Source: an uncultured archaeon
GTDB taxonomy: Archaea > Asgardarchaeota > Jordiarchaeia > Jordiarchaeales > Jordiarchaeaceae
NCBI GenBank assembly: GCA_964510585.1
Contig: CAZECW010000177.1
Location: 1 to 29,446 of the forward strand
Length of the DNA: 29,446 bases
Reading direction: 5' to 3'
The notes under the pieces are model-generated. The model worked only from the letters and a program-made list of their open reading frames with translations. It had not been told where the DNA came from and ran no database searches. How positions within the stretch are numbered: the stretch's first letter is position 1; every line of letters begins with the position of its first letter. Shown piece after piece: positions 6,239-8,375 of the stretch. Both the position numbers and the translations under genes were made by a program.

Positions 6239-6388
6239 GCCGGGTTAGTCTAGCGGCGAGGCGCCGGACAGTTTTTTGCCCGGAATGCAGATTCGGTATT
6301 TCTAGCTTGACTCAAGCTTGGGCCGAAACCAGGGTTCAAAATCTTTGGAGGTTTGTCTCCGGTGAGGAAAATCCCTGACCCGGCTCCA
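6239..6388 (+). tRNA. tRNA-Cys(GCA) with three introns (6270-6285 at 32/33, about 6300-6327 at 46/47, 6341-6371 at 59/60) and encoded CCA
   Basis: The spliced product GCCGGGT-TA-GTCT-AGCGGCG-AGGC-G-CCGGA-CT-GCA-GA-TTCGG-TATAC-CAGGG-TTCAAAT-CCCTG-ACCCGGC-T-CCA is a 75-nt cloverleaf with the U73 Cys discriminator. Each intron forms a BHB or relaxed HBh' motif. Confidence 0.9.
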
Positions 6389-6547
6389 ATTAAACTCTTA
6401 AAACATTTGATGGAAAATGAAAAATAAGTTTTCAGGAGATTAGAAACTACAGTTGATTTGAATGTGAAAGGGAAAGCGATAAGTAATTATGTTTAACTAA
6501 TAGAAGTTATAATGTGATTACCTCTTGTAGTGGTTTGACTTGGTAAG

Positions 6548-7183
6548 TTGGAGAGTGGGCTGTTGAATTTTGGGAGTGACGATATTGTTAGAATTAGGGG
6601 TGCCCTTGACGCCTTAATCTCTATTTTGTGTGTGGTTAGGGCTTTTGCCCCGAATTATAATTTTGATTCTGCTGCGGAAGAAAATATAAGAGGGCTTCTT
6701 AAAAATGTACGGGACATCTTGGATTTGACTATGGATAAATTTGGTTTGGGAAAGCTGGGGGAGGCGAAGGAGACTGAGGTGAAGGCAATTGACTTTTCAG
6801 GTGTTCTTTTCATTACTGTTTCTTCCTCCACGAAGAGAAGGCTTCTAGATTTGGGTGTTGATCCTAGGTTTGTGGTGGTGACTGGTGGGCCTCTGGATGT
6901 GGGTGATGTTAAGATTTTGAATCCCAGCATTTCTGATGAGGCTCTTGAAACTGTGAGGAGGAAGGTGGAAGGGGTTTGGCGGGACATAGAGCGGAAGGCT
7001 TCTGAAGCGAAAAAGATTTTGATACTGGCGGAGGCGGGCAATAGGGGGGATTTGATGGTTTCTGAAAGGGCGGGAGAAATTGAGAGGAGGACTGGATTGA
7101 AAACTCTCGTTAAGACTTTTTCCAGCCTTAAGGATTTGTCGGGTGAATTTTTTGAAGATTTTTTGGGTGATGCTAATGTTTGA
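6548..7183 (+). CDS. SepCysE-like (DUF2100/MJ1481 family) translation factor of the Sep pathway
   Basis: Recognised from memory as similar to MJ1481: FAPNYNFD vs KAPKHELN, VVVTGGPLDVGDVKI vs VVCTEGMLDIEDMRA, EALETVRRKVE vs KALEGLKKKVE. Its stop overlaps the SepCysS start and it follows tRNA-Cys. Confidence 0.75.
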   Translation: MESGLLNFGSDDIVRIRGALDALISILCVVRAFAPNYNFDSAAEENIRGLLKNVRDILDLTMDKFGLGKLGEAKETEVKAIDFSGVLFITVSSSTKRRLLDLGVDPRFVVVTGGPLDVGDVKILNPSISDEALETVRRKVEGVWRDIERKASEAKKILILAEAGNRGDLMVSERAGEIERRTGLKTLVKTFSSLKDLSGEFFEDFLGDANV

Positions 7184-8375
7184 TGAGAAAGTTTTAGAGA
7201 AGTATAAGAATTTGGTTCGCGGCGTCGATGAGAATATGATAAATCTTCACCCTATTCAGTCTGGGGGTAGGGCTGGTGATTACCCAGGGGTTGTTCAGGC
7301 TGTTTTGAGGTTTGTTGATGGCTATAGTGTATGTGATTTTTGTATGAAGGGTAGATTGGACCTCATTGAGTCCCCTCCACTCTGCGATTTCCATAGGGAT
7401 ATTGCTGCCTTTTTAGACATGGATGTTGCAAGGCTTTTTCCGGGTTGCCGCCAAGCTCAGTATGCTGCGTTCCATGCTTTAGTTAAACCTGAGGATACTA
7501 TTATTATTGATTCTTTGGCGCATTATAGTACGTATCTGAGTGCTGAGCGGGTGGGGGCTAGAATTGTTGAGGTACCGCACTCGGGGTATCCTGACTTTGA
7601 CCTACTTCTTGATTCTTATGCTGATAAGATTGAGGAGGTGAAACGGGACTCTGGTAAATGGCCAGCTTTGGCCTTTTTAACCCATGTTGATTATAACTAT
7701 GGCAATGTTTTTGATGCAAAGAGTGTGGGCAAAATTTTGCATGATTATGGCATCCCTTTTGTGTTAAATGGTGCGTACACTGTTGGGCGGATGCCAATAT
7801 CTGGAAAAGATTTGGGTGCTGATATTTTGACTGCTTCACTACACAAATCTTTTGCATCTCCAGCACCCTCAGGGCTCCTGTTAGCTAACGTGGATTATGC
7901 AGACGTTATCTTCAAAAATTCTTCAATTAGGGGTCCTTGGAGTGGTAGAAGCTTTGAGAATAAAGAGGTTGAGACTCTAGGCTGCACTCTTCCTGGCTGT
8001 GTAGCCATTGGGGTTATGGCTGCTTTTCCATACGTTGCTGAACGTGTTAAACATTGGGATGAAGAAGTTAAAAAAGCAAGATACTTCATAGAACAATTAG
8101 AAAGGATTGCTGGCATTAAACAGCTGGGGCAACGCCCACACAACCATGACTTGGTACATTTTGAAAGCGAATCATTTTTTGAGATAGCCCAGAAACACCC
8201 TCGGAAAGGATTCTTTCTTTATGAAGAATTAAGGGAAAGAGGAGTCACCGGAATTCAACCCGGCTTATCAAAATTCTTCAAAGTTTCAACATATGGGAAA
8301 ACATGGAACCAGATTAAACTAGCAGCTGAGGCATTCCTAGATATCGCCCAAAAATACAACATCCCAATACATTAA
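7176..8375 (+). CDS. pscS: O-phospho-L-seryl-tRNA:Cys-tRNA synthase (SepCysS)
   Basis: INLHPIQSGG, DGYSVCDFC, DSLAHYST, THVDYNYGN, LNGAYTVGRMP, PLP-lysine SLHKS, and LGCT persulfide cysteine. The start is moved to ATG 7176 (RBS GGGTGA, overlap with the upstream stop). Confidence 0.96.
   Translation: MFDEKVLEKYKNLVRGVDENMINLHPIQSGGRAGDYPGVVQAVLRFVDGYSVCDFCMKGRLDLIESPPLCDFHRDIAAFLDMDVARLFPGCRQAQYAAFHALVKPEDTIIIDSLAHYSTYLSAERVGARIVEVPHSGYPDFDLLLDSYADKIEEVKRDSGKWPALAFLTHVDYNYGNVFDAKSVGKILHDYGIPFVLNGAYTVGRMPISGKDLGADILTASLHKSFASPAPSGLLLANVDYADVIFKNSSIRGPWSGRSFENKEVETLGCTLPGCVAIGVMAAFPYVAERVKHWDEEVKKARYFIEQLERIAGIKQLGQRPHNHDLVHFESESFFEIAQKHPRKGFFLYEELRERGVTGIQPGLSKFFKVSTYGKTWNQIKLAAEAFLDIAQKYNIPIH

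Follow-up and report, generated by a model that had tools for sequence, protein, structure and literature searches.

The stretch of DNA analysed here (the window) is an entire contig of 29.4 kb, C177, belonging to a metagenome-assembled genome of 3.78 Mb (217 contigs, 96% complete). It carries, in the same orientation, a tRNA-Cys gene, a gene for a DUF2100 protein homologous to SepCysE, and pscS, which encodes SepCysS. Since the closest named homologues of the DUF2100 protein come from Candidatus Freyarchaeota, Freyarchaeum deiterrae, and Jordarchaeum, and since DNA of the host occurs in hot-spring metagenome DNA runs, we assign the host to the Asgard class Jordarchaeia/Freyarchaeia. We compared the locus within a class set of 11 genomes, six in the genus of the window (one of them closed, 3,576,204 bp) and five in a second family. 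The sepCysE-pscS locus could be read in 10 of the 11, the remaining one, from the genus, having a gene fragment only. Altogether, the locus is very probably the version, in Jordarchaeia/Freyarchaeia, of the module that carries out the second step of tRNA-dependent cysteine synthesis. SepRS most likely acts untethered there, since SepCysE starts at its N-terminal domain (NTD) and lacks the helix (N-helix) on which SepRS docks.

This cluster of tRNA-Cys, SepCysE-like, and SepCysS genes had been proposed in a preliminary description of the sequence, and it was confirmed by ARAGORN on the spliced tRNA and by matches to DUF2100 and TIGR02539. When the translation of the first protein gene was searched with hidden Markov models (HMMs), as that description had suggested, Pfam PF09873 (DUF2100) matched residues 12-179 to profile positions 36-199 of 210, scoring 70.3 bits (cut-off 23; E 2.7e-19). 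The same profile was found above cut-off in all the class genomes (11/11), the profile match beginning at position 30-43. A search of the PDB retrieved MJ1481 with an E value of 0.005 and an offset of 29 residues. The AlphaFold2 model of the protein (predicted local distance difference test score, pLDDT, 85.9) has two NTD helices (10-32 and 41-64), a linker (65-85, with low confidence at 71-77), and an alpha/beta C-terminal domain (CTD, 86-209). Submitted to Foldseek, this model gave a SepCysE chain, 5x6b_F, as top match (E 1.7e-7) and as sole match below 1e-3. By HMM and by modelled fold, the DUF2100 protein is a true SepCysE homologue. The next gene is the single SepCysS gene of the genome, matched over residues 3-397 (TIGR02539, 457 bits for a cut-off of 365; NF006810, 526 bits). 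Its translation contains VCDFC, LHKSF, and LGCTLPG, which we take to be the Cys-x-x-Cys, pyridoxal phosphate lysine, and third Cys motifs of the family. The stop of sepCysE and the start of pscS overlap by 8 nt, ATGTTTGA (7176-7183), as can be read directly in the sequence and as had already been noted, and in 10/10 readable class genomes pscS comes directly after sepCysE, the two overlapping or lying a few bases apart. The two genes are probably translationally coupled.

The N-terminus of SepCysE is the distinctive part of the protein. In Methanocaldococcus jannaschii, SepCysE is made of an N-helix (Met1-Lys24) that binds SepRS, a linker 1 (25-34), an NTD (35-101) that binds SepCysS, a linker 2, and a CTD (111-213) that binds tRNA, and deletion of the N-helix abolishes SepRS binding (PMC5688128). 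The window protein begins about nine residues ahead of the first NTD helix, and the same start point was found in all 10 readable class genomes. In the genus, the start is a conserved TTG codon before ESGLLNF, and in the second family it is an ATG about 10 residues ahead of the helix. The in-frame TGA reported in the preliminary description is indeed present before the start in the window, and the upstream frames are likewise closed near the conserved start in the nine other readable class genomes. In a 27-member alignment of the family, an extra helix of about 23 residues was seen only in Methanobacteriales-type sequences; all other Asgard homologues aligned also begin at the NTD, and those that are longer owe this to an insertion in linker 2. 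The proposal of a shortened SepCysE is thus upheld, but the estimate of about 40 missing residues is too high, the MJ1481 match and the alignment giving a deficit of about 23-29. Judging from these sequences, the N-helix that docks SepRS is absent, rather than altered. Therefore, of the suggestion that the ancestral complex persists complete in this lineage, with a changed bridging domain, what holds is the presence of the three genes. The features of the locus are collected in Table 1.

Table 1. Features of the tRNA-Cys-sepCysE-pscS locus, numbered from the first nucleotide of the window
Feature	Position	Strand	Description
TATA-like CTTTAAAT	6213..6220	+	Candidate tRNA promoter (putative function), some 20-25 nt ahead of the 5' end of the tRNA
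tRNA-Cys(GCA) gene	6239..6385	+	147 nt; three introns between four exons; 72 nt when mature, with U73 as discriminator
Intron 1	6270..6285	+	16 nt, tRNA position 32/33; central helix CCGG/CCGG (4/4), 3-nt bulges AC/A and AA/T (slash, cut)
Intron 2	6300..6327	+	28 nt, variable loop, 46/47; central helix CGGT/GCCG (4/4) and inner 7-bp hairpin
Intron 3	6341..6371	+	31 nt, T loop, 59/60; relaxed motif, 3/4 central pairs, 5-bp T stem as outer helix
AT-rich spacer	6389..6547	+	159 nt; conserved 22-nt block and TATA-like TTATAAT; possible separate sepCysE-pscS promoter
In-frame TGA	6536..6538	+	9 nt before the sepCysE start; closes the upstream frame
sepCysE (DUF2100)	6548..7183	+	211 aa, TTG start; without the SepRS-binding N-helix
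pscS (SepCysS)	7176..8375	+	399 aa, ATG start

As stated in the preliminary description, no SepRS gene is present in the window. It was found on contig C187 (539 bits), between a translin-like (TRAX) gene and the genes of riboflavin kinase and FAD synthase, an order that corresponds to 'clade I' in Mukai et al. 2017 (PMC5424206). SepRS, SepCysE, and SepCysS are thus all encoded in one genome. Neither a lack of DUF2100 and SepCysE structural matches nor an absence of SepRS, the outcomes named in the preliminary description as refuting it, was therefore observed. A check of the genome for SepRS and CysRS had been recommended, and CysRS is encoded as well, away from the window. The genome also encodes SepSecS, and its selD gene (C193:53368-54288) contains an in-frame TGA, probably a selenocysteine (Sec) codon, and an in-frame TAA. 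With SepSecS and the in-frame TGA of selD, the genome obeys the published rule linking SepCysE to selenocysteine use in archaea (PMC5424206). The SepRS gene has a peculiarity of its own: no ATG, GTG, or TTG lies ahead of the conserved N-terminus of the protein, KFDIKKILEKAE, the preceding codon is ACG, and this region overlaps with the last part of the translin-like gene. In several relatives, SepRS is shortened by gene callers (458-496 aa).

The tRNA gene is hidden by its introns. No tRNA was detected in the raw window by ARAGORN or Rfam (gathering threshold), and the gene was recognised only once the introns had been removed. When the three introns listed in Table 1 were taken out, ARAGORN folded the spliced 72 nt into a canonical cloverleaf, tRNA-Cys(gca), of 75 nt with CCA added. 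The acceptor stem is a perfect 7 bp, GCCGGGT/ACCCGGC, followed by the U discriminator, the anticodon read by eye is GCA, and the D arm and T arm (CAGGG/CCCTG) resemble those of known archaeal tRNA-Cys. The intron boundaries were placed by the bulge-helix-bulge rule (on each strand, the cut comes after a 4-bp helix and two bulge bases) and then by comparison of relatives. The motifs were read manually: because an unconstrained bulge-helix-bulge scan was too noisy, giving many spurious pairs, the cloverleaf and the relatives set the boundaries. Intron 1 measures 15-16 nt among relatives, its variation being confined to a small loop, and the anticodon loop after its removal is CUGCAGA. Intron 2, whose interior differs between relatives, leaves upon removal the variable loop TATAC, which one second-family genome (G001) has without interruption. 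For intron 3, 59/60 is the sole boundary that yields one mature T loop, TTCAAAT, across all five genus genomes. In these five genomes, only 2 of the 72 exon columns are variable, forming one compensatory acceptor pair (7:66), versus 57 of the 109 intron columns. The triple-intron tRNA-Cys of the preliminary description is therefore well founded, with three introns of the bulge-helix-bulge type. The CCA at 6386-6388 reads TCA in two relatives and is thus not conserved, so that the tRNA gene ends at 6385. Two paralogues of the tRNA-splicing endonuclease EndA were found in the genome (C157:27039-27287 and C126:19921-20181), each lying in a reading frame that stays open for about 206 codons. Two-subunit endonucleases cut relaxed motifs in Crenarchaeota, and the presence of two EndA paralogues suggests a two-subunit enzyme of this type. 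The three introns of tRNA-Cys would presumably be removed by this two-paralogue endonuclease.

We then looked at the orthologous tRNA-Cys genes. In all 10 class genomes examined, the mature tRNA is near-identical once two to four introns are removed, and the 59/60 intron is present in every one of them. The closed genus genome (G006) has four introns (33, 15, 29, and 31 nt), the extra one, of 33 nt, being located at 15/16 with a helix GTCT/GGAT and a 6-bp inner helix. In the second family, four genomes have four introns (15/16, about 22/23, 37/38, and 59/60) and one has two; all the spliced forms were called tRNA-Cys, and a well-conserved CGTAAYRTTTAAAAG box is found about 33 nt upstream of the gene. 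The coordinates of the orthologue in the closed genome coincide with a locus, 1326639-1326821, that the published tRNA table of this Freyarchaeia genome gives as tRNA-Ser(AGA) with an Infernal score of 25.2, in a table that holds no tRNA-Cys entry (PMC11291895). From its sequence, this locus is instead a four-intron tRNA-Cys. The reassignment appears new and amends the list of tRNA genes published for a complete Asgard genome.

In the preliminary description, it was also proposed that splicing of this tRNA could gate the pathway, which we consider unlikely. Introns occur in 92-95% of the tRNA genes of the lineage, and over half of these genes have several (PMC11291895). Run on the whole genome of the window (3.78 Mb, 96% complete), ARAGORN reported just nine tRNA genes, several of them dubious, and most of the tRNA genes are evidently concealed by non-canonical introns. 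The tRNA genes of Freyarchaeia and Atabeyarchaeia are likewise described as having multiple short introns, placed at non-canonical positions and with bulge-helix-bulge motifs of relaxed form (PMC11291895), to which the window genome adds its two EndA paralogues, and the same multi-intron likeness extends to the tRNA genes of Thermoproteales (Sugahara et al. 2008, as cited in PMC11291895). Moreover, the number and position of the tRNA-Cys introns differ between close relatives (two to four introns). Finally, the gene is the only tRNA-Cys found in the assembly by an intron-tolerant search. A second one was detected neither by blastn-short with the mature sequence nor by a heuristic based on acceptor, T arm, and U73, which is non-exhaustive and was applied to an assembly 96% complete. 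Since it is the only one found, the same tRNA also serves CysRS. Interrupted tRNA genes are the norm in this lineage, and the introns of tRNA-Cys are no pathway-specific switch.

The order tRNA-Cys, sepCysE, pscS was found in nine class genomes, from both families. The two genomes outside this count are one of the genus with a contig break between the tRNA and sepCysE, and the one with the gene fragment. In four other Asgard lineages (Helarchaeota, Promethearchaeota, and others), the DUF2100 genes had no same-strand SepCysS and no recognisable tRNA-Cys within 3 kb, although intron-rich tRNAs could have escaped detection in these lineages. The class-wide linkage of tRNA-Cys to sepCysE-pscS appears new. 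The region between the tRNA and sepCysE is organised differently in the two families. In the second family, only about 27-33 nt separate the tRNA 3' end from the ATG, which is preceded by a Shine-Dalgarno-like GGTG. In the genus, the spacer contains a 22-nt block, GGGAAAGCGATAAGTAATTATG (6470-6491), nearly invariant in four genus genomes and flanked by variable sequence, and a TTATAAT (6507-6513) about 35-40 nt before the TTG start. The 22-nt block, in which we saw neither structure nor coding potential, could be a promoter or regulator site. When the four genus genomes were aligned, the indels of the spacer were not multiples of three, indicating that the spacer is non-coding, and stops were present in all frames. 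No conserved RNA structure was found in the 159-nt spacer (-8.9 kcal/mol, negligible covariation). Across the spacer, the 3' acceptor strand of the tRNA with its trailer, CCCGGCTCCA (6378-6388), is complementary to the first sepCysE codons, TGGAGAGTGGG (6546-6559), over nine pairs with a 2-nt bulge. This pairing is kept in three of four genus genomes, shows no covariation, and is probably due to chance.

From homology, a working scheme can be proposed for the module. SepRS, encoded elsewhere, would charge the spliced tRNA-Cys with phosphoserine (Sep). The helix-turn-helix NTD of SepCysE would hold the SepCysS dimer, as the coupling of the two genes also suggests, its alpha/beta CTD would grip the elbow of the tRNA, and SepCysS would convert Sep-tRNA-Cys into Cys-tRNA-Cys. 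The module would then operate as a SepCysE-SepCysS(-tRNA) complex rather than as a transsulfursome of three enzymes. That the lineage builds a full SepRS-SepCysE-SepCysS transsulfursome, in which another surface of SepCysE or another adaptor binds SepRS, seems to us improbable. The three proteins are all encoded, SepCysE is kept in every class genome, and SepRS is always paired with a TRAX-like gene, whose product is a conceivable adaptor, all of which would suit such a complex. However, the sole known docking element, on which binding depends in M. jannaschii (PMC5688128), is wholly missing, and the SepRS gene is unlinked to the tRNA-Cys-sepCysE-pscS module. SepRS itself points in the same direction: at the three loops that meet the N-helix in M. 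jannaschii (ILDEF, FNGE, and ALVSN), it reads QTETG, IDGK, and MIEKN, and loop 1 is clearly non-hydrophobic in place of the hydrophobic ILDEF, resembling QTAVG of Archaeoglobus fulgidus, while loops 2 and 3 are ambiguous. We also considered that the short N-terminus might be an artefact, the N-helix being encoded upstream and joined by a tRNA-type mini-intron, a frameshift, or a non-standard start, a view that could draw on the conserved 22-nt block in the genus spacer and that we hold to be very improbable indeed. The gap in the second family, ending at a well-placed ATG, leaves no room for an upstream exon, the other Asgard homologues aligned have the same N-terminal limit, and an upstream exon, a frameshift, or an alternative start was rejected as largely refuted by this gap, by the closed frames, and by the spacer indels. 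Returning to the reading that we favour, an intron-bearing tRNA-Cys with a SepCysE-SepCysS module and an untethered SepRS, several points weigh against it. The TTG start of sepCysE is inferred from its conservation, and intron 3 has a relaxed motif (3/4 central pairs), its boundary being set by comparison rather than by structure. The SepCysE-SepCysS contact is predicted from homology and gene coupling, and the detachment of SepRS from the loss of the single known docking element, so that some other contact may exist. Lastly, CysRS is present and may share the supply of Cys-tRNA with the SepRS route, and cysE and cysK are also present according to the published Freyarchaeia annotation.

The conserved order of the three genes can be read in two ways as regards transcription. 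They may form one transcription unit across Jordarchaeia, a possibility that we put forward tentatively and that is on balance doubtful. Release of the tRNA, by RNase P, RNase Z, and two to four endonuclease cuts plus ligation, would then generate the mRNA 5' end, the supply of tRNA-Cys would become coupled to how much Sep can be converted to Cys, and the SepCysE devoid of its N-helix would act as a SepCysS-bound tRNA handler keeping SepCysS off Sep-tRNA-Sec, not as a bridge to SepRS. It is quite plausible, though short of probable, that the tRNA is merely adjacent by inherited order and has its own transcript, with sepCysE-pscS expressed from a promoter in the spacer and no functional coupling. 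The genus spacer agrees with such separate transcripts, as its TATA-like TTATAAT lies shortly before the TTG, with the 22-nt block just upstream. Separate transcripts fit less well with the order being kept in both families, with a second-family gap too short for a promoter, and with the conserved TATA box ahead of the tRNA in the same family. They also fit less well with the other Asgard DUF2100 genes, which are without either partner nearby; this indicates that the linkage is class-specific and not a general accident.

The protein part of the locus has known counterparts. Like MJ1481 SepCysE in the transsulfursome of class I methanogens (PDB 3WKR, 5X6B, 5X6C; PMC5688128), the window protein is a DUF2100 protein with a helix-turn-helix NTD, a flexible linker, and an alpha/beta CTD, and, as in these methanogens, it co-occurs with SepRS, SepCysS, and a selenocysteine system. 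Contrarily to MJ1481, it has no N-helix (Met1-Lys24) and almost no linker 1. Its gene overlaps pscS and follows tRNA-Cys, unlike that of M. jannaschii, and the host is a non-methanogenic Asgard archaeon with CysRS. The same shortened architecture was described for Asgard SepCysE by Mukai et al. 2022 (PMC8762117), who reported the lack of the N-terminal helix and a possible detachment of SepRS, which a later review repeats. The central point made here, an Asgard SepCysE devoid of its N-helix with SepRS detached, is thus already published. Non-methanogens with SepCysE were reported by Mukai et al. 2017 (PMC5424206). Among them is the 'AK8/W8A-19 group', which has SepCysE and SepCysS in one operon and for which a 'split SPS' was also described. 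The window shares with this group both the operon and the use of selenocysteine, and our guess is that the group and the host are the same lineage, in which case the interrupted selD frame may also explain the 'split SPS'. No mention of the tRNA-Cys gene ahead of the operon, of its introns, or of its correct identity in the published genome was found in the searched text of PMC8762117 and PMC5424206. Clustering of a tRNA-Cys gene with enzymes of the indirect Cys pathway is known in bacteria and DPANN archaea (PMC5424206). Those clusters contain SepRS/SepCysS. In the window, by contrast, an intron-rich tRNA gene is grouped with SepCysE and SepCysS, SepRS being absent from the cluster, and the host belongs to the Asgard archaea.

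These findings leave the current picture of the pathway unchanged. They provide a class-wide example of tRNA-dependent cysteine synthesis in Asgard archaea and make the published idea of a detached SepRS testable with defined genes. In the family where the tRNA lies some 30 nt ahead of the operon, the locus offers a simple archaeal system for the question of a tRNA and an mRNA derived from one precursor.

Beyond the module, an open reading frame of 137 aa with no Pfam match lies downstream of pscS, on the opposite strand (8588-9001, -). Neighbouring genes encode a flippase-like membrane protein of polysaccharide biosynthesis (4403-5914) and a homocitrate/isopropylmalate synthase-like protein (9142-10419, -).

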